Shown: positions 1,814 to 52,586, counted from the stretch's first letter. The stretch is DNA of 64,000 nt from Armatimonadota bacterium (GCA_043814095.1 JBDRKI010000102.1:1-64000); one strand, 5' to 3'. Numbers and translations: made by a program. The notes: generated by a model from the sequence alone, not told the origin.

Positions 1814-4447
1814 ATGGAAATCAGGAAAGCTGTTTCAGTCGATGATATGAGTAGTTTATACACTCAATCGTTTAATACTCAAAGCGAAAAAGCACAGAGA
1901 AGTTTTTTAGAACTTAAGGACAGATTTGATTCTATAAAGCTTTTTGCGGCCGGAAATAATAATGATGGAAAAGCACAGGGCATTGGGGACAAAAAAGCCT
2001 CGGAATCATCTAAGATTATCCCGAAAGATTTAAATCCCGAGGCCATTTACAACATAAAAGGACAAAATTCTAAATTATCGTCTCCTGACGGTAGATTTTT
2101 AATCTTCCTTGATGGAGAGTCTAAAAAATACAAAATGTTTGATTTTCAGACTAAAGAATATGTTTGTCAGGAAGTATTAGATAAAATTTTGAAAGAGGAA
2201 TATGAGTTAGTAGATTTTTCAGCAAAAGGCGATTCTTTAATCTGCTTTTCTGGTGGCGAAACAGAGCCTTATATAGAAGTTATAAACGGTAAAAAAGTTG
2301 TTAAAAAAAGGGTCGTAAAAAACGACCGATTATATACTATAGATCTTAAAACCGGCCGTAAGAAAATATTAACCGTAATAAAAATAAATGGTATGATAAG
2401 TTATTCAAGAGAAGAAAACGCGATTTATATTGTGACTTTTGTGCCTAAAAATTCTATAGAAGACAATGTAGGTTCTTATCCGCGGAAAGCCAGCTTGAAA
2501 AGAGTGTATAAAGTAGACTTAAGCGAAGGATCGGATAAAACTCCTCAGATTATTTATGAAAGCAACCGAAGAGACCGTGAAATTACGGATACACGGTTTT
2601 CACACGATGGAAGATATATGGCTTTTGTTAAAATGCCTTTAGACGGAAAAGCTAAAAACGGTGAAGTTTTTATATATGATATAAAAAATAAAAAGGAAGT
2701 AAAAGTAACGGAAAATCTCAGAGTAGAAGATATTGTAGGCTGGACTGCTGATTCAAAACGTCTTATTTTTGAACAGGATGTCAGGGATAATTGCATAAAT
2801 TCTTCTGACGGGTTATGGATGTATGATATTGAGACAGGGAAAAATATTCATCTGGCAGACGGGGAGAAATTTAATATAGAAAAAGTATTGATACCCAGGG
2901 ATCCCGGCGAGAGCTGCATTTATTTTGTTTCGCCTGCCGGTTTTTATAATGAAGTTTATAAGATAGATCTGAGTAAAATTAATTCAAATAATCCGAGATT
3001 GCCCGAACCCGAATTAATATTAAGCAAAAAAGACGGTTTTGTAAGTAATTTTATGCTTTCAGGTAATGGCGATAAACTTTATTTTAGAGCAGATACAAAA
3101 GATGCGCCTAAAGTTTTCATGTCATTAGATACGGCTTCCGGTAAAAAGGAAGAAATTGTAAATTCGAACAAAGATTTTTATAAGCAGTATAAAATGCCTA
3201 CACAGGAAATTAAGAGTTTTAAATATACCGCTGAAGACGGCAGCTCCGTTGAAATAGAATATCAGGTAACATACCCGCCGGGTTATGATAAAAACGACAA
3301 AAAAAAATACCCGCTTATTCTAATGATACACGGCGGGCCTAACAGCAGGTTTGCTGCTGATATTTTTGACGGCGATCAACCGAATCTTATGGCGGCCAGG
3401 GGATATATAGTTTTATGTCCGAATATAAGGGGGAGTGATGGGTACGGCCAAAAGCATCTGGAGGCAATATATTCTGATGATAAGGGCAATAATTTAAGTT
3501 CTAAGGGTTATCATGACCTTATGGCGGCCCTGGATAATCTTGTAACCAGGAATCCGGGTAAAGTTGATACCGATAGATTAGGTGTTTACGGGTTCAGTTA
3601 CGGCGGCAGCACGACAAATTACATTATCAGCCAGAAACATCCAAAATACAGGTTTAAAGCGGCTGTTTCCGGAGCTGGAAGATCAACTTATGTTCCGATT
3701 GACGAAAGAAAGTCTTTTATTGAAACACATTTTCCCGGGGATTTCACTTCGCAGGAAGCCGTAGCAAATAAGGTTTATCCTGCTTCACCCCTGGGGGCTT
3801 TAGGTACCACTGTTAATGAAGACCCCGGCTTTAAAACTCCGCCCCTTCTTATACTTCACGGAACTGATGACGGGACGGTTTGCTTCGGGCATTCCGAGAA
3901 TTTTTATGAAGAGTTAATAAAAAGGAAAATGAATGTAAGGCTTCTACCGTATGAGGGAATAGGGCACAACATTTTAAGCGGCAAAGGTGGTTTTATCAGT
4001 CATTATAATTATCTTGCCAACTGGTTTGATCATTTTTTACAGCCGGAAAAAGAGATATACGATTCCGAGACCTACTCCATATATGCAAATGCCGGCGAAA
4101 AAAGGTTAAACAGGATATATACGGATTCAAGATCGAAACGGATAGGAAATAAAAAATCCGAGAACGGCAAGTTTGCTAAAATCGCCTTTGAAGTCGAGCC
4201 TTTAGTCGGGATGCTGAATCTGGATATGTATAAAGAAAATATAGTGCTGGAAGATGAAGACGGAAAAAAATACAATCCTGTAGGAAAACTGGATAATTTG
4301 GGAGCCGATAAGTTAGAAAATGTAGACGAAAAAAGAATTTATTCAAGTGATGCCGAGAAATTCATATTGGTTTTTGATATTCCTAAAGAAAAGAAAGAAT
4401 ATAAATTAAAAATTAAGGATTTTCCGCCTATAAGAATAACGATATAA
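1814..4447 (+). CDS. S9 family (acylaminoacyl/dipeptidyl) serine peptidase with beta-propeller and C-terminal Ig-like domain
   Basis: [20 protein letters not shown] nucleophile elbow, HGTDD, EGIGH triad; TolB/PD40-like repeats N-terminally. ATG 1814 follows GGGGGT. Confidence 0.9.
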
Positions 4448-4463
4448 CAAAGGAGGTGAGAAC

Positions 4464-4787
4464 ATGATAGTTACAACAACCCCGAGTGTTGAAGGGAAAC
4501 AGGTTGCGGAGTATCTGAATATCGTAACCGGCGAAGCCATACTGGGTGCCAATGCAATTAAGGACATGTGCGCTTCATTTACCGATTTTTTCGGCGGCAG
4601 ATCCGGCTCATATGAGAAAGAGATGGGTAAAGCAAGAGAGATAGCCATTGATGAGATGAAGCAGGCGGCACAGGCACTGGGCGCAGATGCGGTAGTCGGC
4701 GTGGATATTGATTATGAGACTTTGGGCAGAGAAGGAAGCAATATGATGTTCGTAACGGCATCAGGTACCGCGGTTAAGTTCGGTTAG
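4464..4787 (+). CDS. ybjQ: YbjQ/UPF0145 heavy-metal-binding family protein
   Basis: MIVTTT...[10 protein letters not shown]...[13 protein letters not shown]...ASGTAV. Confidence 0.92.
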
Positions 4788-4803
4788 GGAAAAATTTGTT
4801 TCT

Positions 4804-4837
4804 AATAAAGAGGCGGTTTTTAAACCGTCTCTTTATT
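4804..4837. terminator. Bidirectional rho-independent terminator
   Basis: aataaagaggcggttt-tt-aaaccgtctctttatt hairpin between convergent ybjQ and oppC. Confidence 0.8.
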
Positions 4838-5691
4838 TATACCTTCATCTTGGGATCAAGCGCGTCACGCAGCCCGTCTCCTATGAAGTTGAATGCCAGA
4901 ACGGCTATCATTATAAGGAGGCCGGGGAAGATGCTCATCCACGGGGCTGAGAATATATATTCCTGCGCGCTCTGGAGCATATTGCCCCAGGAAGCCATGG
5001 GTTCCTGAACTCCTAATCCTAAAAAGCTTAATACCGATTCCAACAGTATTGTCGCCGCCACGCCTAATGTGCCTGTTACTATTATGGGGGCGCTGGCGTT
5101 CGGGATGAGGTGCTTAAATATTATCCTTGAGTCTGAGGCGCCTATTGCTCTTGCCGCTTCTATAAAAGGTGTTTCTTTTAAAGATAAAATCTGACCCCTT
5201 ACAAGACGTGCCGTGCCTGCCCAAGAGGTTAACCCGATTACAAGTATCACATTCCAGATGGAAGGCTTTACCATGGTCTGTATAATCAATATGAAGAACA
5301 GGGTAGGGAGGCATAATAAAAGGTCTACTATTCGCATAATTACCGCATCAAGTATCCCTCCGTAATAACCCGATAAAGCGCCGAAGAATGTTCCTATCAG
5401 TATAAATATGATTACCGCGCAAATACCGACCAGAAGCGATACTCTGCCCCCGTAAAGCGCGCGTGATAATATATCCCTGCCGAAATTATCCGTTCCTAAA
5501 AGATGTTTTAAAGATGGGGGCTGAGGGATGCCTCTAAAAGATAAGTCCGGCTTATCAGGGCTGTACGGCGCTAAAACAGGCGCAAAAATTGCGCAGAAGG
5601 TTAATATAATAAGGATGATAAGTCCGGTTTTTGCAAGCTTATTCTTTTTAAACCTTCTCCATGATTTTGCTGTCAGTTCATTTTTAACCAT
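4837..5691 (-). CDS. oppC: Oligopeptide ABC transporter permease
   Basis: HLLGTDNFGRD, EAARAIGA loop, FNFIGDGLRDALDP. Confidence 0.93.
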   Translation of the reverse strand: MVKNELTAKSWRRFKKNKLAKTGLIILIILTFCAIFAPVLAPYSPDKPDLSFRGIPQPPSLKHLLGTDNFGRDILSRALYGGRVSLLVGICAVIIFILIGTFFGALSGYYGGILDAVIMRIVDLLLCLPTLFFILIIQTMVKPSIWNVILVIGLTSWAGTARLVRGQILSLKETPFIEAARAIGASDSRIIFKHLIPNASAPIIVTGTLGVAATILLESVLSFLGLGVQEPMASWGNMLQSAQEYIFSAPWMSIFPGLLIMIAVLAFNFIGDGLRDALDPKMKV

Positions 5692-5695
5692 ATAA

Positions 5696-6655
5696 TTAAT
5701 ACCTTATTCTAGGATCCGCCCACGCGTATAATATATCCGCAAGCAGGTTCCCGAGGAGCACTAAGACTGATGTAAGGAGTATATCACCCATAAGTATGGG
5801 GTAATCCCTGTGAAATACAGCATTCATGCCAAGCTGGCCCATCCCGGGCCATCCGAATATATATTCAATTACAAACGCGCCTGCCACTAATATGGGCAGG
5901 CTTAAACCTATTAAAGTTATAACAGGGAGAAGCGCGTTGCGCAGTGCGTGTTTGTATATGACTATGTTCTCGGGAAGCCCCTTTGCCCGGGCTGTCCGTA
6001 TATAATCTTCATTTATAACCTCAAGCATTGATGAACGCAGGTATCTTGTCCAGTCGGCCAGGTTTCTGACCGTTAATACCGCTGCCGGAAGGGCCAGATG
6101 CTTTAAGAAATCAAGAAATTTTGCAAAAAACGGTCCTGAATATATACTGCATATCCCTGATGAAGGGAACCATCCCAGTTTTAAACTGAAAATATATATT
6201 GCCATAAGGGCAAGCCAGAATGAGGGCATGCTTAGCCCTATAAATGCAAGGAATGTAAGTGAATAGTCCCAGATGGAATACTGCCTTACGGCAGATATCA
6301 CACCCAGTGGAATTGATATTAATAAGCTTAAAATGTATGCCCCGCCCATTAAAGCTAAGGTCGCAGGTATTCTTTCAACTATGCTTTTTAATACCGGCCT
6401 TCCGTTAACCATTGAATATCCGAGATCGCCGTGAAGAGCTAAATTTTTAAGCCATATCCCGTACTGTACGATTACAGGTTTGTTTAACCCTAAGTTTTCC
6501 TTCATTAACTGGCGGTCCTGTGGTCTTGTTCTGGGATTAATAAGATAATCGGTAGGGTCTCCCGGCGCCATAACTATAATAAAATAGGAGACAACCGTCA
6601 CTAAAAGTAATGTCGGCAGCATTCCCAGTATGCGTTTTAATATGTATTTCAGCAT
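5696..6655 (-). CDS. oppB: Oligopeptide ABC transporter permease
   Basis: APGDP, GDLGYS, DYIRTARAKGL, KHALRNA, DPRIRY. Confidence 0.93.
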   Translation of the reverse strand: MLKYILKRILGMLPTLLLVTVVSYFIIVMAPGDPTDYLINPRTRPQDRQLMKENLGLNKPVIVQYGIWLKNLALHGDLGYSMVNGRPVLKSIVERIPATLALMGGAYILSLLISIPLGVISAVRQYSIWDYSLTFLAFIGLSMPSFWLALMAIYIFSLKLGWFPSSGICSIYSGPFFAKFLDFLKHLALPAAVLTVRNLADWTRYLRSSMLEVINEDYIRTARAKGLPENIVIYKHALRNALLPVITLIGLSLPILVAGAFVIEYIFGWPGMGQLGMNAVFHRDYPILMGDILLTSVLVLLGNLLADILYAWADPRIRY

Positions 6656-18112: not shown

Positions 18113-18134
18113 ACCTGAAATCTTGGAGGATATA

Positions 18135-20711
18135 ATGAGACTTGATAAATTTACGGTAAAAGCGCAGGAATCAATAGCTGAAGCTCAGCATTTAGCTGAT
18201 GAATATAAAAATCAGGAGATTCAGCCCGAACATCTGTTTCTTGCTTTGATTGACCAGGAAGGCGGTGTTGTCCGCTCCATAATTGAAAAACTGGGTTCGA
18301 ACTACGAAGCGGTAAAACCGCTTGTTATTCAGGAGATAAATAAATTTCCTAAAGTCTCTGGTGCGGTATCGCAAACATATATCTCGCCTTCATTTAAGAA
18401 CCTGCTTGATGTCGCGTATAATGAGAGTACAAGGTTAAAAGACGAGTATGTAAGCACAGAGCATCTTTTCATAGCTTTAGCGAAATCTGATACTCCTTCG
18501 GGCAGAATATTAAAAAGCTTAGGCATTACCGCTGATGCTATTTATAAAGTGCTGGTTGATATAAGGGGGTCGCAGCGTGTTACCGACCAGAACCCCGAAG
18601 ATAAATACCAGGCGCTTACTAAGTACGGGAGAGATCTTACCGAACTTGCAAGGAAAGGCAAGCTTGACCCCGTTATAGGAAGGGATGAAGAGATAAGGCG
18701 CACCATCCAGGTTCTCTCGCGCAGGACGAAAAATAATCCCGTTCTTATAGGCGAACCGGGCGTGGGTAAAACCGCGGTGGTTGAGGGGCTTGCCCAGCGC
18801 ATAGTAAAACAGGATGTGCCTGAAGGGCTTAAAAATAAACGCGTTATAGCTCTTGATATAGGGTCGCTTGTCGCAGGGACAAAGTTCAGGGGAGAGTTTG
18901 AAGACAGGTTTAAAGCGGTTTTGAAGGAAATACAAAATTCCGCAGGACAGATAATACTCTTTATTGACGAGCTTCATACACTTGTAGGGGCAGGCGGCGC
19001 GGAAGGCGCGGTGGATGCCGCTAATATGATAAAACCCGCTTTAGCAAGAGGCGAACTGAGGTGCATAGGAGCTACTACCTTAGATGAATACAGGAAACAT
19101 ATTGAGAAAGACGCGGCGTTAGAGAGAAGGTTCCAGCCTATATATATTAAGGAGCCTTCGGTTGAGGATACAATCGCGATATTAAGGGGATTAAAAGAAA
19201 AATATGAGATTCACCACGGTGTTCGCATAAAAGATTCGGCCATAATAGCGGCCGCGGTTTTATCAAACAGGTACATAGCCGACAGATTTCTCCCCGATAA
19301 AGCCATAGACCTTATTGATGAGGCGGCGTCAAAATTAAGGATGGAGATAGACAGCCTGCCTACAGAGATAGATGAAATAGACAGGAAAATCATGCAGTTG
19401 GAAATTGAGAAGCAGGCGGTAAGCAAAGAAAAAGACGCTCAATCCAAGGAGAGGCTGGAGAAGATAAACAAGGAACTGGCCAAGTTAAAAGAAGAAAGCG
19501 ATTCTATGAAATGTAAGTGGCAGAAAGAAAAAGATGGTATTATAAAAATACAGAAGATAAAAGAAGATATGGAATCTGCTAAGCATGAGGAAGAAGAAGC
19601 TGAGAGAAAAGGGGATCTCCAGAAAGTAGCAGAGTTAAGATACGGGAAACTGGCCGAACTTCAGAAGGAACTGGATAAAGAGAATAAAGCCCTTGAGAAG
19701 ATGCAGAAAGAACATAAATTCTTAAAAGAAGAAGTGGATGAAGAAGACGTGGCGGAAGTCGTCTCAAAATGGACAGGGATCCCTGTTTCTAAGATGCTTG
19801 AAAGCGAGATGCAGAAGCTTATACATATGGAAGAAGACTTAAGAAAAAGAGTAGTAGGGCAGGATGAAGCGATCTTTGCGGTGGCAAACGCAATAAGGCG
19901 TTCACGCGCGGGAATATCTGATGAGAACAAGCCCATGGGTTCATTTTTGTTTTTAGGCCCTACGGGTGTAGGCAAGACCGAGCTTACCAAAGCTCTGGCG
20001 GAATTTTTATTCGGTGACGAGAAGGCAATGGTCCGCATAGATATGTCTGAGTACATGGAAAAGCACTCTGTCGCGAGATTGATAGGAGCGCCTCCCGGTT
20101 ATGTAGGTTATGAAGAAGGGGGCCAGCTTACCGAAGCCGTGCGCCGGAGGCCTTACAGCGTTATACTATTAGACGAGATAGAGAAAGCCCATACGGATGT
20201 ATTTAATGTACTGCTCCAGATACTTGATGACGGGAGACTGACCGACGGTCAGGGCAGGACAGTAGATTTCAGAAACACGCTTATCGTAATGACATCCAAT
20301 ATAGGGAGCCAGTATATAAGGGAGTACGGCCAGAGCGAGCCTGAACTTATGAAGAAAAAGGTTACAGAAGAGCTTAACAACCATTTCAGGCCGGAATTTT
20401 TAAACAGGATTGATGAGATCGTCTTCTTTAACCAGTTAACCAAAGAAGATATAGGAAAAATTATTGATCTTCAGATAGCATATTTAGATAAACGGTTAAA
20501 GCTGAGAAAGATAGATGTTGAATTAACCGATAAAGCGAAAGAATACATAGCCAATGTGGGTTTTGATCCTGTTTTCGGAGCAAGGCCCATAAAAAGAGCC
20601 ATACAGAAATATATTCAGGATCCCTTAGCGATGAAAATATTAAGCGGTGACATAAAAGAAGGCTCTAAAGTAAAAATAGACTGCGCCGGAGGCGAGATAG
20701 TTATTAAATAG
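18135..20711 (+). CDS. clpB: ATP-dependent chaperone ClpB
   Basis: MRLDKFT start, GEPGVGKT and GPTGVGKT Walker A motifs, long coiled-coil M domain, GYVGYEEGG. Confidence 0.97.
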
Positions 20712-44108: not shown

Positions 44109-44303
44109 GTGAATATGATTAAAAAAGTTATCAGTATTAATAAAACCAAAGATTTTTCTGAGATAAGATCGAATCTGTCTTTCTGGCTGTCAAAACCATC
44201 AGAAGAGCGTATTTTTGCTGTAGAATTATTAAGGAGACAAATGCATGGATATTCAACAAGACTTCAAAGAACTGCTCGAGTTATTCAACGCAAACAAGGT
44301 TGA
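44109..44303 (+). CDS. Small partner protein of a nucleotidyltransferase (antitoxin-like)
   Basis: FWLSKPSEERIFAVELLRR motif; overlaps the downstream NT gene; own promoter AGGGAAT-N11-AAAGAAT at 44080-44104. Confidence 0.6.
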   Translation: MNMIKKVISINKTKDFSEIRSNLSFWLSKPSEERIFAVELLRRQMHGYSTRLQRTARVIQRKQG

Positions 44304-44694
44304 GTATGTTATTGTCGGCGCTTATGCATTGGCGCTTCACGGAGCACCTCGAAGTACCGGGGATATAGATATTCTTGTGGGGACTGACAAAATCAATGCA
44401 GAACGAATTCTTAAAGCATTAAATGAATTTGGTTTTGGTTCATTAAATTTAAAAGTTGAAGATTTTACAACGCCTGATAATATCATACAGCTTGGAGTGG
44501 CTCCGGTTCGAATTGATATTATAACAACAATTACCGGGGTTTCCACAGAAGATGCGTTTTCTGGACGAATAGCTGATAAATACGGAGATGCACCCGTATA
44601 TTATCTGGGCTTAAATGAATTTATTGAAAACAAAAAAGCTCTTGCAAGAAAGAAAGATCTGGCAGACATTGAAGCCCTTGATAAGCTTGATTGA
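44245..44694 (+). CDS. Nucleotidyltransferase family protein
   Basis: YVIVGAYALALHGAPRSTGDIDI, RIDI, NKKALARKKDLAD. Confidence 0.85.
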   Translation: MDIQQDFKELLELFNANKVEYVIVGAYALALHGAPRSTGDIDILVGTDKINAERILKALNEFGFGSLNLKVEDFTTPDNIIQLGVAPVRIDIITTITGVSTEDAFSGRIADKYGDAPVYYLGLNEFIENKKALARKKDLADIEALDKLD

Positions 44695-44827
44695 TTTTTT
44701 ACGGAAATATATATGAATAAAAAAGTCCAAATAGCAATCCTACTATTAATAACTTAAAAGGAAATATAATAATATTAAAGAATAACCCAGTAAAGGTTAT
44801 TCTTTTTATTATATGGAGGTATTGTAT

Positions 44828-45250
44828 ATGAAAGATGACGGAAAAAAATATTTAAAGGACATGGATAAGATTTTTAACCGGTTTGGCGAAATCCAGAAAA
44901 GATTTAACGCGGGCAGGGATGGCATTAAAGCCATAGTCTCTTTTATAGGCGAGATGTCAAGGAAAAAAACTCCTGCTTTTGCGCTGGATGATCCTATACT
45001 CGTAAGGGGCAGTGAGCTTATGAAGGAAGTTATAGATTCTCTGGATGAACAGCTTAAAGCCGCCAAAAAAGTATCTGCTCCTACCGAGTTTTCAAAGTTC
45101 CATAAGGATCTTCTGGAATCGTTGAAGCTGCAGGTAAGCGGGTATAAAGAGATGACTGATATGTTCGCTGATTATAAGGTTACGCACGCTTTAAAAGGAA
45201 AAGATAAGGTAACTAAAGGCGTAGAACTTATTGAAAAAGCGGTAATATAG
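44828..45250 (+). CDS. Hypothetical all-helical protein
   Basis: GGAGGT RBS; first gene after the promoter AGGAAAT-N11-AAAGAAT at 44759-44783. Confidence 0.75.
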   Translation: MKDDGKKYLKDMDKIFNRFGEIQKRFNAGRDGIKAIVSFIGEMSRKKTPAFALDDPILVRGSELMKEVIDSLDEQLKAAKKVSAPTEFSKFHKDLLESLKLQVSGYKEMTDMFADYKVTHALKGKDKVTKGVELIEKAVI

Positions 45251-45251
45251 T

Positions 45252-46556
45252 GTGAACTGTGAAGTCACTGTAGATAAGATATCATACGGCGGGGAAGGTA
45301 TAGCAAGAACAAACAATATGGTTGTCTTTATACCGGGTGCTGTTCCCGGTGACAAGCTGGAAATTAAGCTTACCGAGCATAAAAAAAACTACGCAAGAGC
45401 TGAAATAGTAAAAATTGTAGAGCCCTCCTCCCGCAGGATTAAACCCAAATGCAAATATTTTAATGTTTGCGGGGGATGCAGTTTCCAGAATATTGATTAT
45501 AAAGAGCAGCTGAACATAAAAAAACAGATAGTTGAGGACTCTTTTTTCAGGTTCGGCAAGGGTCTCTGTGTAAAAGTAAAGGATCTTATCTGTTCGGAAA
45601 AAAAGTTCGGCTTCAGGAGCAAAATCCAGTGGGTGGCTAAAGATAATACTCTGGGTTTATATAAAAAAGGCACTCATAATGTAATTGATATAGATTACTG
45701 TTTTCTTGCAGATAAAAAAGTTAATGATTTAACTTCGTTAATAAAAAGAAAGCTTGCCGGAGCTGATTATAAGGTATTAAAGCATATTATAATCAGGGAA
45801 TCATTATATAAAGATGAATTTCTCGCGGTTTTTGTATTAAATAGCGGAAAAATTGAAGGTTTTAAAAAGATCACAGAAGAGCTTATGAGTGAGTTTCCGG
45901 GTTTGGCAGGTGTTTCGGCTAATATAAATGAAAAAATATCAAATGTGATTTTAGGAGATAAGAATATCCTGCTTGAAGGAGAAGGTTATTTAGAGGAAAA
46001 GGTTGATAATCTTTTCTTTTATTACAGCGGGACGCTGTTTTTCCAGGTTAATACAGGTCAGCTGGAGAAAATAATAAAGATTATAAGGGAAAATGTATTA
46101 TTAACAGGGAATGAAGTTGTTTTAGATTTATACAGCGGGGTAGGGGCACTCTCCCTTCATATGGCAGGGGAATGCAGAAAGGTAATTTTGTCTGAAGAGT
46201 CCCCCGGAGCCGAGGAATTTTTCACAAAATCGGCTAATAGGAATAATATAACCAATGTTGAATTTATAACCGGTAAAGTTGAGGATTTTTTAGATAAGTT
46301 TCATAAAGAAGGCGGTTCTGCGGACTTAGTGATACTTGATCCGCCCCGTAAGGGTTGTTCTGACGAAGTTATAAGATGCCTGGGATTAATAAAAGCGCCT
46401 AAAATAGTATATTTATCGTGCAATCCCGTCACACTGGCAAGGGACTGCAAAAAACTTGCGGGTTATGGCTATAAAGTTAATTTAATACAGCCGGTTGATA
46501 TGTTCCCGCAGACATATCATGTTGAAGTGCTGGCTGTCCTGGAGAATAAGGAGTAG
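45252..46556 (+). CDS. rlmD: 23S rRNA m5U methyltransferase RlmD/RumA
   Basis: TRAM domain, CKYFNVCGGC, FFQVN, LDPPRKG, YLSCNP, DMFPQTYHVE. Confidence 0.95.
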   Translation: MNCEVTVDKISYGGEGIARTNNMVVFIPGAVPGDKLEIKLTEHKKNYARAEIVKIVEPSSRRIKPKCKYFNVCGGCSFQNIDYKEQLNIKKQIVEDSFFRFGKGLCVKVKDLICSEKKFGFRSKIQWVAKDNTLGLYKKGTHNVIDIDYCFLADKKVNDLTSLIKRKLAGADYKVLKHIIIRESLYKDEFLAVFVLNSGKIEGFKKITEELMSEFPGLAGVSANINEKISNVILGDKNILLEGEGYLEEKVDNLFFYYSGTLFFQVNTGQLEKIIKIIRENVLLTGNEVVLDLYSGVGALSLHMAGECRKVILSEESPGAEEFFTKSANRNNITNVEFITGKVEDFLDKFHKEGGSADLVILDPPRKGCSDEVIRCLGLIKAPKIVYLSCNPVTLARDCKKLAGYGYKVNLIQPVDMFPQTYHVEVLAVLENKE

Positions 46557-46559
46557 GTT

Positions 46560-48794
46560 ATGGGACTTTTCCCGAGCGAAGGATTTGAAAAACTAAAACA
46601 AAAAGCGCTGGATATATTAAGGGCAAATAATATATGTTATCTTGGCGTTGAATATATATTTCTGGCATTTCTCTTAATCAATGAGAACCTTTTCAAAAAA
46701 GCCGGTGTGGATATAGAGAAAGTAGTTAAAGATATACTTGAACTGTCAATAAGAGGAGAGACAGCCCCTGAGTCGGTAGGAGTTACTCCCAGATACAAAA
46801 TTATATTCAAAGAAGCGCAAAAGCTGGCTGAAGAAGAAAAATCCGACAGGGTCGAAGTCCCCCATTTTATAAAAGCAATGTTTGAAGACGAAAACAGCCT
46901 GCCTTCTGTTGTGCTTAAATGGAATAATATAGATAAAACGATTGTTACGGCCAATCTTGATAAGGCAAAAGACGTATCCGAAGCTTCCCCTGATAAACAG
47001 GAATCGAAAACTTCTAAAAAAGAAGATAAAAAATCATTTATTGAGAAATTCGGCAAAGACCTTGTTGTTGAAGCTAAAGCAGGCATGATAGATCCGGTAA
47101 TAGGCAGGGAGAAAGAGATAGACAGAATAAAACAGATTCTTTTAAGAAAAACCAAAAGCAATCCTGTCTTAATAGGAGAGGCGGGAGTGGGCAAAACCGC
47201 TGTTGTTATGGGGATTGCAAAAGCAGTGGCGGAAGGAAGGGTGCCGGATCAGCTTAAGGATAAGCGTATAATTGAACTTAACATAGCTTCCGTTCTTGCG
47301 GGGGCAAAATACCAGGGTGAGTTTGAAGAACGCCTGGAGAAAATAATAAAAGAAGTGGAAAAGAGCAAAGATATAATATTATTTATTGATGAGATCCATA
47401 ATATAACGGGGGCAGGCAGGTCAGGTTCCGGTCTTGATGCCGGAAATATTTTAAAACCGGCGCTGGCTAAAGGCTCTTTCCCTGTTATAGGGGCTACCAC
47501 GGTAGATGAACACAGAAAACACATTGAATCAGATCCTGCTCTGGAGAGAAGATTCCAGCCGGTCATAATTAACGAACCTTCTATTGAAGAAGCAATTGAT
47601 ATATTAAAGGGGTTAAAAGAAAGCTTCCAGGTTCATCACGGGGTTGAGTTTGAAGAAGAAGCTTTAATTGAAGCTGTTAAGCTTTCAAACAGGTATCTTA
47701 CAAACAGAAACCTGCCTGATAAAGCCATAGATCTTATTGATGAGGCGGCGGCCAAGGTTAAAATAGAAGAGGTGGATTCTAAGGTTATCACCAAGGATAT
47801 GATAGCTCAGGTTTTATCTTCATGGACAGGGATACCTGTGGGAAAGATGACTTCACAGACTTCACAGGATCTTTTGAAGTTGGCGGATAATCTGCGTGAG
47901 GAAGTTATAGGTCAGGATAAAGCGGTTGATGCTGTATCCCAGACAGTGCAGATGGGCTACTCAGGTCTTGCTAATTACAAAAAACCTCTGGGAGTATTTT
48001 TATTCTTAGGTCCTACGGGTGTGGGTAAGACATATCTTGCCAAGCGCCTGGCAGCCAAATTGTTCAGTTCCGAAAAAGATTTAATACGTCTAGATATGTC
48101 CGAATTTATGGAGAAGCATTCGGTGGCAAAACTTATAGGGGCGCCTCCCGGTTATGTAGGTTACGGGGAGGAAGGCATACTTACAAAATCCGTCAGGACA
48201 AAACCGTATTCCGTGGTGCTGTTAGACGAGATTGAGAAAGCCCATCCTGAGGTTTTTGATATATTCCTCCAGGTATTTGATGAGGGCAGGTTGACTGATT
48301 CCCGCGGCAGGACTATTAATTTCTGCAATACTATTATAGTTATGACTTCAAATATAGGTTCTACGAGCATAGACAAAGACGGCAATGTGATATTGGTTGA
48401 TATGGAAGATAAAACTTCTCAGGAAGATATAATGAAGCTTGTAAGGAAAACATTCAGGGCGGAATTTTTAAACAGGATAGACGAAGTGGTTTTCTTTAAA
48501 TCCTTAACTGAAGCCGAACTGAAAAAAATAGTTAAGTTGAGTTTCAGCGAAGCGGAGAAAAGACTTAAAGAGAAGAATATAAACTGGATTATATCTGATG
48601 AAGTTGTAGATCTGGTATGCAATCAGGGGTATAACCCCGCTTACGGGGCAAGGCCGTTAGAACGGGCCATAGGCACCCTTATACTGAAACCGCTTTCTTC
48701 GGAACTTTTAAAAGAGAATTTCAAGGAAGGCGATATTGTCCAGATTAAACTTAATCCGTCCACAAACAAGATAGAGTTTTTAAGGGAGAAATAA
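46560..48794 (+). CDS. Class I Clp/Hsp100 AAA+ ATPase with no M domain and no IGF loop
   Basis: Clp_N-like N-terminus; GEAGVGKT/FIDEIH and [20 protein letters not shown] pore loop. Confidence 0.93.
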   Translation: MGLFPSEGFEKLKQKALDILRANNICYLGVEYIFLAFLLINENLFKKAGVDIEKVVKDILELSIRGETAPESVGVTPRYKIIFKEAQKLAEEEKSDRVEVPHFIKAMFEDENSLPSVVLKWNNIDKTIVTANLDKAKDVSEASPDKQESKTSKKEDKKSFIEKFGKDLVVEAKAGMIDPVIGREKEIDRIKQILLRKTKSNPVLIGEAGVGKTAVVMGIAKAVAEGRVPDQLKDKRIIELNIASVLAGAKYQGEFEERLEKIIKEVEKSKDIILFIDEIHNITGAGRSGSGLDAGNILKPALAKGSFPVIGATTVDEHRKHIESDPALERRFQPVIINEPSIEEAIDILKGLKESFQVHHGVEFEEEALIEAVKLSNRYLTNRNLPDKAIDLIDEAAAKVKIEEVDSKVITKDMIAQVLSSWTGIPVGKMTSQTSQDLLKLADNLREEVIGQDKAVDAVSQTVQMGYSGLANYKKPLGVFLFLGPTGVGKTYLAKRLAAKLFSSEKDLIRLDMSEFMEKHSVAKLIGAPPGYVGYGEEGILTKSVRTKPYSVVLLDEIEKAHPEVFDIFLQVFDEGRLTDSRGRTINFCNTIIVMTSNIGSTSIDKDGNVILVDMEDKTSQEDIMKLVRKTFRAEFLNRIDEVVFFKSLTEAELKKIVKLSFSEAEKRLKEKNINWIISDEVVDLVCNQGYNPAYGARPLERAIGTLILKPLSSELLKENFKEGDIVQIKLNPSTNKIEFLREK

Positions 48795-48796
48795 TT

Positions 48797-49084
48797 ATGA
48801 TAAAACTGGAGATAATCGGCGGCCCTTATGACGGTAAGGAATATAAATTCAATAAATCAATAAAGATAGGCAGGGATAAATCTGCCGACATATCCATATA
48901 TTTTGACAACTTTGCGTCCCGGATACACACTGGCTTGGAAATTGAAGGTAAAAAGTGTATATTAAAAGATATGAACAGCACTAACGGCACATATATTGGC
49001 AATAATAAAATAAATGAGGTAGAATTAAAGGATAAAGATATATTTAAAGTCGGAAGAACGTTATTTAAAGTGGAGATATATTAA
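48797..49084 (+). CDS. Stand-alone FHA domain protein
   Basis: IGR, ASRIH, DMNSTNGT. Confidence 0.93.
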   Translation: MIKLEIIGGPYDGKEYKFNKSIKIGRDKSADISIYFDNFASRIHTGLEIEGKKCILKDMNSTNGTYIGNNKINEVELKDKDIFKVGRTLFKVEIY

Positions 49085-51244
49085 ATGATAGGACAGATTA
49101 TAGGCAATTATAAAATAGAGGAAAGAATAAAAAGCCAGGAACAGTATGCCATTTACAGGGCTAAGGATACCATATTTAATGTTCCCGTTTATTTAAAGAT
49201 TTTATCTCACAAGATAGTAGACAATCAGGATGTAAAAAAGAATTACTTATCCTGTGCTTCCCAGTATCTTAAGCTGAAGCATCCCAATATCTTAAATCTT
49301 TTAAAAACAGGCGATGAAGGGGGATATACCTACCTTGCTTATGAGAATTTTTCAATTAAGACTCTCTATGAGTATTTAGGTGAAAACCCGGCTCTTACCC
49401 TGCATGAAAAAATGGATATATTTTTTCAGATCTGTAAAGGTCTGAGTTATGCCCATCAGGATTGTATTCTGCACGGTAATTTAACGGCAGGGAATGTATT
49501 TATAGATAATAATAAAAATATAAAAATTGTGGATTTCGGAATTTCGGCTATTGAAATGCTGCAGACAGAAATTCACCAGAACCAGATACTTGAAGGCTTT
49601 TATTATTTCCCGCCCGAGAAGATAAACAAAGAACCCTTAGACGAGAAATCCGATCTGTATTCCCTGGGCGTTCTCTTATTCTACATATTGAGCAGAAAAT
49701 ACCCCTTTGAAGCCGAAGGGCTTAACCAGCTGTTCGGCAGAAAGCTGGAAGGTCACGCGGCAAGCATATCTTCATATGTTAACGATATTCCCCAGAGTAT
49801 ATCCGATGCAATATCCAAGCTTATTAAAAATAATAAACAGGAACGTTATTTAAATATTAAGGAACTTCTAAATGATATTAATAACTCCGGCTTAGATATT
49901 CAATACAATATCCCTTTATCCCCGAAACAGTCAAACTGGTTTGTTAATAAGGCAGGGGAAGCTTACCTTGCCGGAGATATAAATGCTTCTATTGAGAACT
50001 GGACCAAAGCAATTGAATTTGACCCTTATAATCCCGGATTATATACAAACCTTTCTAAAATATACTTGGAACAGGGAGATTACGCAAAAGCGGCTGAAAA
50101 TTACAAAAAAGCCCTTTCGGTGGAGCCTTTTAAAACCAGCTGGCGCGTGGAACTCGCCAACTTACTTAAAAAAAGCAGTCAGTTCGGTTCCGCTCTTTCT
50201 GAATACGAGATTATAAAGAAGCTGGATTCTAAATACCTGCCGTATTATTTTAATGCCGGGAACTGCCTGTATTTCCTTAAAAGATACGGCGAAGCCATTA
50301 CAGTATGGCTTGAAGGATTAAAACGCGATCCCGATAAACTGAGACTTCTGTATAACCTTGGGGTTGCCGAATACGCGATAGGCAAGACGGAAAAAGCACT
50401 TGAGTACTGGAGCAAGGTTCTGGAGATAAATAAAAATTTTGTAAAGGCCTCCTATAACCTGAGTATTGTAGAATTAAACAATAATAATACAGATAAAGCG
50501 TTCCTGTTATGGGAAGAGCTTGATAAAATATCCAATATGCCCGAGATAAAATTAAACCTAGGTAACAGTTATTATAACAAAAAAGACCATGATAAAGCCA
50601 TGGAATACTGGAGTCTAGCCCTGGAATTAAATAAGGACTGCTGGCAGGCATATTTTAACCTCGGGATTTATTATTTCGGTAAAGATATAAATAAATCCAG
50701 AGAAATGTTTGAAAAAGCATCTCAGGCAAAGCCGGATTTATGGCTTGCTTACTGGAATCTGGGCTATGTTGCACAGAAAGACGGAGACCATAAAGCTTCT
50801 TCTGAATATTTTGACAAAGTTCTGCAGCTTAACCCCGGATACTGGCAGGCAAATTACTATCTGGGCGAAAAACTCATAAAAGAAAATAAAATGGATGAAG
50901 CCCAGAAATGTTTTATGAAGATATTTGACACACAGACTGACTTTTCGGAAGATTTCTGTAAAAATATGGGAGCCATCTTCTATAAAAATAGTCAGATTGA
51001 CAAAGCTGTTGACTGCTGGGCAAAAACAGTATCGCATCATAATTTCCAGTGGGATGAAAAAGATGACGGTAAGGATATCCCCGACAGGATATATAAAGCT
51101 GCAAAGATTATGGTGCAAAAAGAACTTAAAGAAAAAGGGGATGGGGCCTCATTCTTTGTTCATGACCAGAAAGTCCACTTTAATATAAAGCCGGAGCTTA
51201 TCCCGGCCGACTGCGGGGATATTATTCCTGTAATTGACTATTAA
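49085..51244 (+). CDS. Hanks-type (pseudo)kinase domain + TPR repeats
   Basis: HPNIL, HGNLTAGN, DFG, FPPE, SDLYSLG; about 400 aa of TPRs. Confidence 0.9.
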   Translation: MIGQIIGNYKIEERIKSQEQYAIYRAKDTIFNVPVYLKILSHKIVDNQDVKKNYLSCASQYLKLKHPNILNLLKTGDEGGYTYLAYENFSIKTLYEYLGENPALTLHEKMDIFFQICKGLSYAHQDCILHGNLTAGNVFIDNNKNIKIVDFGISAIEMLQTEIHQNQILEGFYYFPPEKINKEPLDEKSDLYSLGVLLFYILSRKYPFEAEGLNQLFGRKLEGHAASISSYVNDIPQSISDAISKLIKNNKQERYLNIKELLNDINNSGLDIQYNIPLSPKQSNWFVNKAGEAYLAGDINASIENWTKAIEFDPYNPGLYTNLSKIYLEQGDYAKAAENYKKALSVEPFKTSWRVELANLLKKSSQFGSALSEYEIIKKLDSKYLPYYFNAGNCLYFLKRYGEAITVWLEGLKRDPDKLRLLYNLGVAEYAIGKTEKALEYWSKVLEINKNFVKASYNLSIVELNNNNTDKAFLLWEELDKISNMPEIKLNLGNSYYNKKDHDKAMEYWSLALELNKDCWQAYFNLGIYYFGKDINKSREMFEKASQAKPDLWLAYWNLGYVAQKDGDHKASSEYFDKVLQLNPGYWQANYYLGEKLIKENKMDEAQKCFMKIFDTQTDFSEDFCKNMGAIFYKNSQIDKAVDCWAKTVSHHNFQWDEKDDGKDIPDRIYKAAKIMVQKELKEKGDGASFFVHDQKVHFNIKPELIPADCGDIIPVIDY

Positions 51245-51367
51245 TCTGTAATTTTTCTTCTATTTACCGGGTTTTTACCAAAAATACTCCATTTGACCTA
51301 TATTTTTATTTATATATCCATGTTAAAATAATTATAGGAAAGATATTAATATAATTTGGAGTTGCAT

Positions 51368-51652
51368 ATGGTATGGGAAGGATTAAACAGCGGATTTAAT
51401 GTTCAGGAATATAAACAAAGTCTCAGGGAATCTGTAAAGCTTAAAAATCTGAAAGTAGGTATAGATCTAAATCTGGCTTTAAAAGAAGAAGAACTGCAGA
51501 AGCTTAAAGAAGATGATAATGTTAATGAGATTAAATTAAGAAATATGGAGAAAGATGTTAAAAAGCTAAAAAGAAAAGCCGGAATATTGAAAGAAAAATA
51601 TGAAATAATCGCAGAAAAACTGCAGAATTACGAAAGCCAGTTCTTTACATAA
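51368..51652 (+). CDS. Hypothetical coiled-coil protein
   Basis: Charged helical ORF with a GGAG RBS. Confidence 0.6.
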   Translation: MVWEGLNSGFNVQEYKQSLRESVKLKNLKVGIDLNLALKEEELQKLKEDDNVNEIKLRNMEKDVKKLKRKAGILKEKYEIIAEKLQNYESQFFT

Positions 51653-51658
51653 AAATTT

Positions 51659-52561
51659 TTACTTCCTCGGATGACTCTTCTTGTAAGTCTCTTCTATATG
51701 TTTTAATGAAATATTAGTATATATCTGTGTAGTAGACAGGTTCTCATGGCCTAAAAGCTCTTTTATGCTCATAAGATCAGCTCCGCCTTCAAGCATATGC
51801 GTGGCGAAACTATGCCTAAGCGTATGAGGGGAGGCATCTTTATTTATCCCTGCCGCCTTTTTATACTTATCGAAAATGTATTCTATCATCCTATCTGAGA
51901 TACGAACATTTTTTCTGCTGATGAATAGGGCAGGGGAACTGACTTTCGGCCTTATAGTCAAATAATCTTTTACCGCCTTTTTCGTGGACTCGTTTATAAG
52001 GACAAATCTTTCTTTATTTCCTTTTCCTCTTACTTTTATAAGCATATTCTCAAAATCTATGCTGTCGTGGTTTATGCTGACAAGCTCGCTTATTCTCAGG
52101 CCGGTAGCGTAGAAGAGCTCAAAAATAGCCTTGTCTCTGATAGAATAGGGATCCCGGGACTCTGCTATTGTCTCAAAGAATTTTTCCATCTCTTCCTTAG
52201 TGAGGACATTGGGCAGCTGCTTGCCCAGTTTGGCGCTCTTTATCTTGGTCATGGACGACTTTTTAACAATCCCTTCAGACTCTAAAAACGCAAAATATGC
52301 CTTTAATGTGGCGATTTTTCTATTTAGTCCCTTAGGTGAATACTTCTTATCAAGCTTAAGATAGGTCAAGAACTCCCTTACAGTCCTTTCATCTATATCA
52401 TCAAGAACCATTCCTTTTTTAATCTGGGGGAGGAAGAATGAGAAAAATATTTTTAAATCATGGGAATATTCTTCTATTGTTCTCGGCGCCAGATTTTCCT
52501 CAACGGCCAGATAATTAAGAAAGTCTTTTACCAGAAACTCGCGTTCGCGCTCCTTAAACAT
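51659..52561 (-). CDS. XerC/XerD-family tyrosine recombinase
   Basis: Core-binding N-domain; TGLRISE, GKGNKER, HTLRHSFATH, LLGH, TQIY. ATG 52561 preferred over GTG 52585. Confidence 0.93.
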   Translation of the reverse strand: MFKEREREFLVKDFLNYLAVEENLAPRTIEEYSHDLKIFFSFFLPQIKKGMVLDDIDERTVREFLTYLKLDKKYSPKGLNRKIATLKAYFAFLESEGIVKKSSMTKIKSAKLGKQLPNVLTKEEMEKFFETIAESRDPYSIRDKAIFELFYATGLRISELVSINHDSIDFENMLIKVRGKGNKERFVLINESTKKAVKDYLTIRPKVSSPALFISRKNVRISDRMIEYIFDKYKKAAGINKDASPHTLRHSFATHMLEGGADLMSIKELLGHENLSTTQIYTNISLKHIEETYKKSHPRK

Positions 52562-52562
52562 G

Positions 52563-52586
52563 TTTTCCACAGAACAATTATCCACA
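52563..52586 (+). promoter_or_regulatory. Two DnaA boxes
   Basis: TTTTCCACA (52563-52571) and TTATCCACA (52578-52586). Confidence 0.55.

Follow-up and report, generated by a model that had tools for sequence, protein, structure and literature searches.

What does a Clp/Hsp100 ATPase do when it is encoded directly ahead of a small forkhead-associated (FHA) domain protein and a kinase-like protein with tetratricopeptide repeats (TPRs)? This question is raised by three genes at positions 46560 to 51244 of a stretch of DNA from an Armatimonadota bacterium (GCA_043814095.1 JBDRKI010000102.1:1-64000; the whole analysed stretch of 64,000 nucleotides is called the window below). A first-pass annotation had proposed that they form a phospho-directed unfoldase module, consisting of a stand-alone, ClpV-like ATPase, an FHA adaptor and a pseudokinase with a TPR scaffold. 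No description of a combination of Clp, FHA and kinase-TPR was found in full-text searches of the literature. The three genes are one copy of a module that is kept across an uncultured, Eremiobacterota-like phylum. The answer preferred here is tentative and falls a little short of being probable: the FHA subunit would tie a ClpP-independent unfoldase to threonine phosphorylation, most likely as an adaptor that reads phosphothreonine (pThr). The case for this reading is built from one in-silico complex and from comparative gene order.

The module genes are the last three of five co-directional genes (hyp145, rlmD, Clp, FHA and kinase-TPR), with successive gaps of 1, 3, 2 and 0 nucleotides (nt). 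Their open reading frames (ORFs), including the tight coupling by 2 and 0 nt, are exactly as first annotated:

46560..48794, forward strand: two-ring Clp/Hsp100 ATPase of 744 amino acids (Pfam, alignment and tree)
48797..49084, forward strand: bare FHA domain protein of 95 amino acids (Pfam FHA)
49085..51244, forward strand: pseudokinase and TPR protein of 719 amino acids (Pfam Pkinase and TPR matches, AlphaFold2 model)

The first of these proteins belongs to the class I Clp/Hsp100 ATPases, which have two AAA+ rings, as judged by its Pfam domains (Clp_N, AAA, AAA_lid_9, AAA_2 and ClpB_D2-small, all above their cut-offs) and by Walker A and B motifs in both rings. Clp_N covers residues ~1-135 and is followed by a Ser/Lys-rich linker to ~160, the first ring (D1, ~160-405) and the second ring (D2, ~410-744). 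Residues K212, D277/E278, K490/T491 and D556/E557 are invariant in 16 Clp sequences, as are the arginine-finger and sensor residues and the G-Y-V-G pore loop of D2 in the alignment of the 16 Clp orthologs. The D1 pore loop (residues 250-252) is K-Y-R in ClpA, ClpB and ClpC. Among the 16 orthologs, 90 % or more have His in place of the aromatic residue (K-H-R), and the window Clp has K-Y-Q. Judging from these residues, threading may depend mainly on the second ring in most of the family.

The Clp lacks two coupling elements, as had been claimed from the outset. In the alignment to Thermus thermophilus ClpB, the step from residue 402 to 407 matches the step from 394 to 518, and about 120 ClpB residues have no counterpart in the comparison with solved structures. 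As these residues make up the middle (M) domain, the Clp would be unable to use DnaK. The ClpP-docking tripeptide, searched as [LIVMA]-G-[FL] in the D2 loop, was found in 0/15 family members, and without the docking loop the Clp would be unable to use ClpP. In the same table, the tripeptide is IGF or MGF in the ClpC-like proteins of the phylum, including the one of this genome on contig C23, and IGL in Escherichia coli ClpA; it is present in every ClpA row and in nearly every row of the ClpC clade, where the pattern misses one Eubacteriales row that reads FGF. The genome (2.5 Mb, 98.97 % complete) contains three class I Clp genes, namely the module gene, the C23 gene and a normal clpB at 18123-20711 of the window, which had also been recognized earlier.

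The placement of the Clp was examined with a quick IQ-TREE of 48 rows. These comprised 15 orthologs, two relatives without an N-domain from family f12, one extra paralog, ClpB and ClpC from this genome and three relatives, references for ClpA, ClpB, ClpC, ClpK, ClpL and TssH, and 14 named loci. A contig scan with the Clp responded to generic AAA+ patterns and returned 80 loci that are ClpB, ClpC or ClpA of other phyla; they were rejected as context, and a few of them served as named references in the tree. All 15 orthologs form one clade with a support of 99 in the Shimodaira-Hasegawa-like approximate likelihood-ratio test (SH-aLRT), or of 100 after two long rows were dropped. This clade lies outside ClpA, ClpB, ClpC, ClpK and TssH. 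With a support of 98 each, the ClpB and ClpC clades include the respective copy of this genome and exclude the module Clp, which thus does not group with ordinary ClpA or ClpC and, with the M domain and the ClpP loop both missing, is of the stand-alone type. The whole-protein models agree with this placement, with 844.9 bits for ClpB (TIGR03346, cut-off 1232.1), 717.9 for ClpA (TIGR02639, cut-off 993.15) and 688.2 for TssH (TIGR03345, cut-off 884.95). A ClpC assignment is contradicted by the missing UVR motif (PF02151), M insertion and tripeptide. The clade joined two TssH references with an SH-aLRT of 84 and a long-branch warning. This join was lost when the two long rows (the paralog of genome G039 and ClpL) were removed, after which the nearest row was ClpK at 69. 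Therefore, the label ClpV-like is not supported by descent and had to be given up, and no sister group of the clade is firmly placed by the tree.

Whether the three genes belong together was assessed by their linkage in 41 genomes of the phylum, the window genome included, for which the matching records carry the names Eremiobacterota, Vulcanimicrobiota and Xenobia. The sample covers 17 families of the phylum (f1 to f17), and a kinase ortholog covering residues 1 to ~657 was found in 30/40 relatives (E 1e-87 to 1e-107). The genomes fall into the following arrangements:

Clp, FHA and kinase all adjacent: 13 genomes (f1, f2, f3, f4, five of f10, one of f11, f14, f15, f16)
Clp and FHA adjacent, kinase elsewhere: 11 genomes (seven of f5, f7, two of f9, f13)
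Clp and FHA adjacent, no kinase found in a genome 67 % complete: 1 genome (f9)
FHA and kinase adjacent, Clp elsewhere: 6 genomes (two of f8, four of f11)
FHA and kinase at a contig start, linkage to Clp unreadable: 1 genome (f6)
Kinase-TPR ortholog not found, and M-less Clp present only in a form without Clp_N: 8 genomes (seven of f12, f17)
Clp found, FHA and kinase not found in a genome 69 % complete: 1 genome (f11)

The linkage seen in the window is thus complete in 13/41 genomes, the window genome among them. In 7 of the 11 genomes with only Clp and FHA adjacent, the adjacency was taken from coordinates only. In the split clusters, the Clp and FHA genes overlap by 4-13 nt, and the flanks of the unlinked kinases vary by family (Rho and radical SAM, CysRS and TatC, a K+ channel, and others). 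Adjacency is kept at about 50 % identity of the Clp and, relative to the window copy, about 30 % identity of the kinase, while the other flanks change. The kinase-TPR and the Clp_N-bearing Clp are jointly missing from the same 8 genomes of f12 and f17; two of the M-less Clp copies of these families were analysed with Pfam, and they lie outside the Clp clade in the tree. The FHA protein at first seemed absent from these families as well. This was ruled out by a bare FHA homologue with a family-specific G-x-x-D-G loop, which stands beside panC, coaBC, coaX and a methionine gamma-lyase gene (L157:3980-4273 in G032, G035:C1:1351421-1351702 and G040:C11:365880-366152; of three loci retrieved, one shows it as an ORF, the others being search matches).

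In metagenomes, an alignment of the kinase retrieved 28 loci, some of them near-duplicates, of which 26 contain an ortholog and 21 extend at least 900 nt upstream of it. The FHA gene is directly upstream of the kinase in 8/21, with the Clp gene present too in 7 of those 8, while a Clp without FHA occurs in 1/21 and neither gene in 12/21. Locus L181 has a Clp-type gene (2116-3903, 42 % identity) 155 nt upstream of a kinase-TPR ortholog (4058-6040), with no FHA detected between them. Another variant is found in G039, where a second, very divergent M-less Clp of 854 amino acids with Clp_N and an IGF tripeptide lies between the FHA and kinase genes (L049:4320-6884). Similar single-piece matches occur at G016:C19:1548-3212 and G027:C44:22511-24229.

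The FHA protein is a clear member of its domain family (PF00498, 56.9 bits, cut-off 20.7), and its relatives are bare domains of 94-101 residues. Among 18 sequences, G25, R26, S41, N63, G64 and T65 are invariant and R42 and H44 are at least 90 % conserved. The pThr pocket ligands (G25, R26, S41, H44 and N63) are intact. The G-x-x-D-G loop occupies residues 9-13, and none of the other FHA domains in this genome has it. Database clusters of the small protein number more than 120, with the source names Eremiobacteraeota, Vulcanimicrobiota, Xenobia and a few other labels of metagenome-assembled genomes, and its best solved relatives include GarA and OdhI (E 4e-12 to 3e-10). The genome contains three FHA genes; of its four FHA matches, C108:16-165 and C42:6052-6213 are halves of one gene split by contig ends, as their protein sequences are identical where they overlap.

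A direct contact of the FHA protein with the Clp is suggested by a structure prediction, for which Clp residues 1-172 and the FHA protein were each entered as an alignment of orthologs. The complex scored 0.85 (runs 0.85, 0.84 and 0.85), and the best of 3 controls scored 0.01. The runs agree on at least 87 % of contacts, and the predicted local distance difference test (pLDDT) of the partner is at least 91. The mark set for the tool is reached by 116/157 solved complexes and by 2/215 mismatched pairs, which is only a rough guide here since own alignments were used. Among the solved FHA relatives listed, none has a Clp partner, and therefore the passing score is unlikely to be memory. The contacts involve residues 26-27, 29-31, 61-64, 76-79, 81, 112-114, 117 and 121 of the Clp and residues 5, 7-14, 36-37, 68, 82, 87-89 and 91 of the FHA protein. 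They include the invariant or near-invariant residues G29, E31, P77 and R78 of the Clp and D12, G13, D37 and T88 of the FHA protein (16 Clp and 18 FHA sequences), and R78-D12 is one of the pairs of lowest expected error. The pThr ligands are not among the confident contacts. According to this model, the FHA protein is most likely bound to the Clp N-domain as a fixed, dedicated subunit. Gene order across the phylum and the modelled docking thus strengthen the earlier idea of an FHA adaptor, although its reading and delivery functions would follow only by extrapolation.

The third protein matches Pkinase (113.9 bits) and many TPR families in Pfam. Its kinase domain (residues 1-270) is followed by ~11 TPRs that form a superhelix (280-650) and by a helix with a disordered tail (655-719). 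The AlphaFold2 model (mean pLDDT 84.9) shows a PknB/Stk1-like kinase fold, an OGT-like TPR superhelix and the disordered tail, and the kinase domain reaches a template-modelling score of 0.89, by target length, to Staphylococcus aureus Stk1/PknB. The window copy has KSQEQY as its glycine loop, Cys in place of the alpha-C Glu, HGN in place of HRD and Thr in place of the catalytic-loop Lys. The beta-3 Lys, the catalytic Asn and DFG are kept, and the copy does not qualify as an active Hanks-type kinase (PF00069). However, the earlier designation as a pseudokinase is true of the window copy and does not hold for the family, because 29/31 copies have a canonical GxGxxG, VAIK Lys, alpha-C Glu, HRD, catalytic Asn and DFG. 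The other degenerate copy belongs to the sole order-mate genome (KRGPIG, HKD and NFG). The decay is thus local to this genome and one order-mate, and by its residues the family is predicted to be an active cytoplasmic Ser/Thr kinase. Since 29/31 orthologs are canonical, the ancestral module would have had its own pThr writer.

A further kinase is encoded about 26 kb beyond the module and outside the window, in a row of the classical cell-wall signalling type (G000:C102:75612-80767, locus L155) that consists of an FHA gene (144 amino acids), RodA/FtsW, a penicillin-binding protein transpeptidase, a PASTA Ser/Thr kinase and a PASTA-only protein. Many Clp orthologs (e.g. at L034, L052, L053, L058 and L036) have long Pro/Gly-rich C-terminal tails with acidic ends (D-x-D-E-x-D-F/L-E-D-T and similar), and the window Clp has no such tail. 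By analogy with Hsp70/Hsp90 co-chaperones, acidic Clp tails might bind the TPR clamps of the kinase and bring the two proteins into contact.

Taken as an adaptor system, the module would work as follows. The kinase would place pThr marks either on itself or on proteins that its TPR domain has bound. The FHA protein on the Clp N-domain would read these marks, and the Clp hexamer would thread, unfold or remodel the marked protein with no degradation. In this genome, the TPR protein would be a scaffold only; as the catalytic residues are lost, the marks must in this scheme come from another kinase, e.g. the PASTA kinase downstream. In its most specific form, pThr would be a targeting tag for a bacterial unfoldase: a ring of FHA readers on the ClpP-independent hexamer would capture the proteins marked by the TPR-kinase and pass them on for forced unfolding or disassembly of complexes, with the dead kinase as a scaffold in this lineage. 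This form is rather less likely than not.

Several observations weigh against the adaptor reading. The analysis as a whole is computational, consisting of sequence comparison, gene order and structure prediction, and the relatives are non-independent samples. The kinase of the window is dead, and even its near-invariant activation-loop Thr is replaced by Ile. No match to the PP2C_2 phosphatase family was found in the genome, a search that did not extend to other phosphatase families. Two of the FHA contact stretches, 36-37 and 87-89, belong to loops that presumably border the peptide-binding face, and the pocket may be blocked in the modelled complex. The contact motifs of Clp_N (G-x-E-H and T-P-R) are conserved in ClpC too, which weakens any claim of specificity for this Clp. 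The FHA homologue of f12 and f17 occurs without either partner, and the G-x-x-D-G loop may serve another partner there. Any single break in a row of three genes leaves the middle gene with one neighbour, and the constant pairing of the FHA gene is therefore weaker evidence than it appears. In addition, rlmD and hyp145 are linked to the Clp as tightly as the FHA gene is. Lastly, no fusion of FHA and Clp was found among the best 120 longer FHA proteins, which is weak evidence; these are multi-domain proteins of ATP-binding cassette transporter, major facilitator superfamily, beta-propeller and similar types, none with AAA_2 or ClpB_D2-small and one with a kinase.

The strongest alternative, which is nevertheless rather unlikely, is a partner switch. 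Here, the FHA protein would be a lid on the Clp_N groove, and pThr made by the kinase would compete for the FHA protein and toggle the unfoldase in the manner of OdhI and GarA. The protein that carries the pThr could be the kinase itself, the Clp (in its linker) or a different protein. In the model, the FHA protein does cover the conserved G-x-E-H and T-P-R surface, its contacts adjoin the peptide-binding loops, and it has no second domain with which to grip a client. The linker between the N-domain and D1 is long, variable and rich in Ser, Thr and Lys, and PknG, a TPR-bearing kinase, likewise pairs with a small FHA protein in the part of the literature consulted (PMC8546545). However, the FHA protein of the module lacks the phospho-acceptor tail of OdhI and GarA, and its canonical pThr ligands stay outside the confident contacts. 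Moreover, ClpS and MecA, which bind the Clp N-domain at this kind of site, are adaptors.

Another possibility, which is improbable, is that no direct coupling exists and that the synteny is merely inherited. The Clp would then be a general stand-alone disaggregase, and the FHA protein and the kinase a separate signalling pair. ClpK/ClpG-type ATPases, without M-domain function in ClpP docking, do act alone. The cluster is split in 17/30 kinase-bearing relatives, with one more unreadable at a contig edge, the housekeeping genes rlmD and ligA are syntenic with the Clp cluster as well, and the FHA homologue of f12 and f17 stands beside neither partner. Against this, the complex score far exceeds that of the best control and involves residues that are invariant in the families, start and stop codons overlap in the split clusters, adjacency outlasts the deep divergence of Clp and kinase with changing flanks, and 8 genomes lack both the kinase-TPR and the Clp_N-bearing Clp.

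It is very improbable that the Clp feeds ClpP or another peptidase in a non-canonical way, with pThr as a degradation tag. The genome has one clpP gene, a conserved D-x-x-G-N-x-x-L stretch occupies the place of the docking loop in D2, and the second M-less Clp of G039 does carry IGF between the FHA and kinase genes. Nevertheless, none of the 15 members has a hydrophobic-Gly-Phe/Leu tripeptide, and the IGF-bearing ClpC-like protein of the genome can serve ClpP. Finally, a type VI secretion system (T6SS)-like set, in which the Clp would act as a ClpV in the recycling of a contractile sheath and be controlled in the PpkA/Fha manner, is close to refuted: the TssH match and the weak join with the TssH references speak for it, but the score is below the cut-off, the join vanishes without the long rows, the alignment of the TssH references is broken in two by a middle insertion that is missing from the window Clp, the kinase is cytoplasmic with TPRs, the FHA protein is a bare domain, and, in line with the first-pass statement that no T6SS structural genes are present in the window, the genome has no match to VipB/TssC (PF05943) or Hcp (PF05638), while TssB, VgrG and the baseplate were not searched. 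The requirement of Fha1 for the focal recruitment of ClpV1 in Pseudomonas aeruginosa, as far as described in the consulted part of PMC3953482, is a further point in favour of this alternative.

Several known systems resemble the module in part. In the McsB system of Bacillus subtilis class III heat-shock, a dedicated protein kinase is encoded beside a Clp ATPase, and a protein arginine kinase gene also lies directly upstream of Clostridioides difficile clpC. In the McsB system, phosphoarginine (pArg) is recognized at the ClpC N-domain surface with the conserved Glu of the G-x-E-H motif. It differs in that the mark is pArg, the N-domain itself reads it, and ClpC, equipped with both M domain and ClpP loop, leads to degradation, whereas the module has a separate FHA reader, its mark would be pThr and its Clp has neither element. 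In the MviN (MurJ)-PknB-FhaA system of Mycobacterium tuberculosis, a catalytically dead kinase domain is phosphorylated and in this state docks an FHA protein, which is a possible model, by analogy, for the kinase copy of this genome. However, the MviN pseudokinase is fused to a membrane flippase, and in the window copy the near-invariant activation-loop Thr is lost. The PpkA-Fha1-ClpV1 set of the T6SS also co-encodes a Ser/Thr kinase, an FHA protein and a Clp-family ATPase. It differs by its T6SS setting, since neither TssC nor Hcp was matched here and the Clp is not TssH by score or tree, and Fha1 and PpkA are larger, with other domain sets than the FHA and kinase proteins of the module. Direct binding of FHA to Clp_N is not described for it in the consulted part of PMC3953482.

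The PknG-GarA/OdhI systems of Actinobacteria resemble the module in their soluble Ser/Thr kinase, C-terminal TPRs and small FHA partner, according to the part of PMC8546545 consulted. GarA and OdhI differ in having a phospho-acceptor tail and in controlling enzymes of the tricarboxylic-acid cycle, and no Clp is involved. PknG has an N-terminal rubredoxin-type domain; of its features, the kinase and TPRs are present here, no rubredoxin family is among the listed Pfam matches, and no PknG is among the fold matches shown. Small proteins that are encoded next to a two-ring Clp or act on it, sit on its N-domain and set its substrate choice are known from ClpS-ClpA and MecA-ClpC (in part from the consulted sections of PMC9663308). 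They differ from the FHA protein in their unrelated folds, read no phosphorylation and serve ClpP-coupled proteases. A lineage-restricted, distinct third class of two-ring Clp with intact ATPase motifs has been described as ClpI in Actinomycetota, with one subclass without the LGF motif (Jiang and Schmitz 2023, PMC10149685, consulted in part). ClpI differs in its phylum and in its M domain of ClpC-like length, and the abstract of that paper names no FHA or kinase partner.

The remaining features of the unit lie upstream of the Clp gene:

44777..44805, forward strand: terminator-like hairpin with a 12-bp stem and T-run, closing the upstream nucleotidyltransferase-like gene and marking where the five-gene unit starts
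44813..45250, forward strand: hyp145, small helical protein, with its conserved Met at residue 6 (44828)
45252..46556, forward strand: rlmD, 23S rRNA (uracil-1939-C5) methyltransferase with a TRAM domain (TIGR00479)

The unit start at 44828 and the inclusion of rlmD, both proposed in the first pass, agree with the conserved Met and with an NCBIfam match of 355.7 bits to TIGR00479 (cut-off 183.55). The rlmD gene is directly upstream of the Clp gene at L025, L032, L034, L044, L049, L052, L053, L055 and L058, and hyp145 and/or rlmD precede it in nine families of the phylum. For hyp145, no Pfam or NCBIfam match was obtained, and the Atlas returned only four-helix-bundle-like look-alikes, all below its bar. 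Its orthologs, with 27 invariant columns in 7 sequences, were found in 6 aligned relatives and 3 metagenome loci, always ahead of rlmD-Clp. The tight linkage of rlmD hints at ribosome biology. Counted from the first start codon, the rlmD frames at L052:2077-4974, L058:7360-9195 and L053:7517-9160 have 547-965 codons compared to 434 here; either their starts are over-called or they may encode additional domains.

Between ligA and the hairpin lies the small nucleotidyltransferase-like gene (44245-44694), with weak matches to DUF6036 and aminoglycoside-2''-adenylyltransferase-like proteins. The kinase gene is followed by a 98-codon ORF (51356-51652) with weak coiled-coil-type matches only, on which a XerC/D-type recombinase gene (51659-52585) converges. 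Promoter-like sites in the region do not exceed shuffled sequence (28 found, 24.8 +/- 5.3 expected). Four runs labelled as groundwater metagenomes contain small shares (0.05-0.07) of the stretch, in exact pieces of 148-287 nt. In the one RNA library (X1), the pieces fall within the genes for the Clp (46963-47226) and for the kinase-TPR protein (50771-50918 and 51017-51167); these are contigs at a depth of 2-3 from a library that may contain DNA, and are no proof of transcription or of an operon.

The classification of Clp/Hsp100 machines follows the adaptors and partners with which they work, such as ClpS, MecA, McsB, DnaK and ClpP. To these, the module would add a Clp class without DnaK- or ClpP-coupling elements, the first FHA protein as a subunit of a Clp N-domain, and a direct connection between signalling by Hanks-type Ser/Thr kinases and the unfolding of proteins. 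The novelty lies in the canonical kinase orthologs and in the modelled docking of FHA and Clp_N through residues invariant in both families. If true, pArg/ClpC and the eukaryotic phospho-degrons would be joined by a third phospho-directed route to an AAA+ machine. With a decayed kinase beside intact partners, this genome offers a natural test of where in the module catalysis is required. As the module is conserved in a widespread and almost uncultured phylum, it probably serves a core process there and would be a core trait of the Eremiobacterota-like bacteria.

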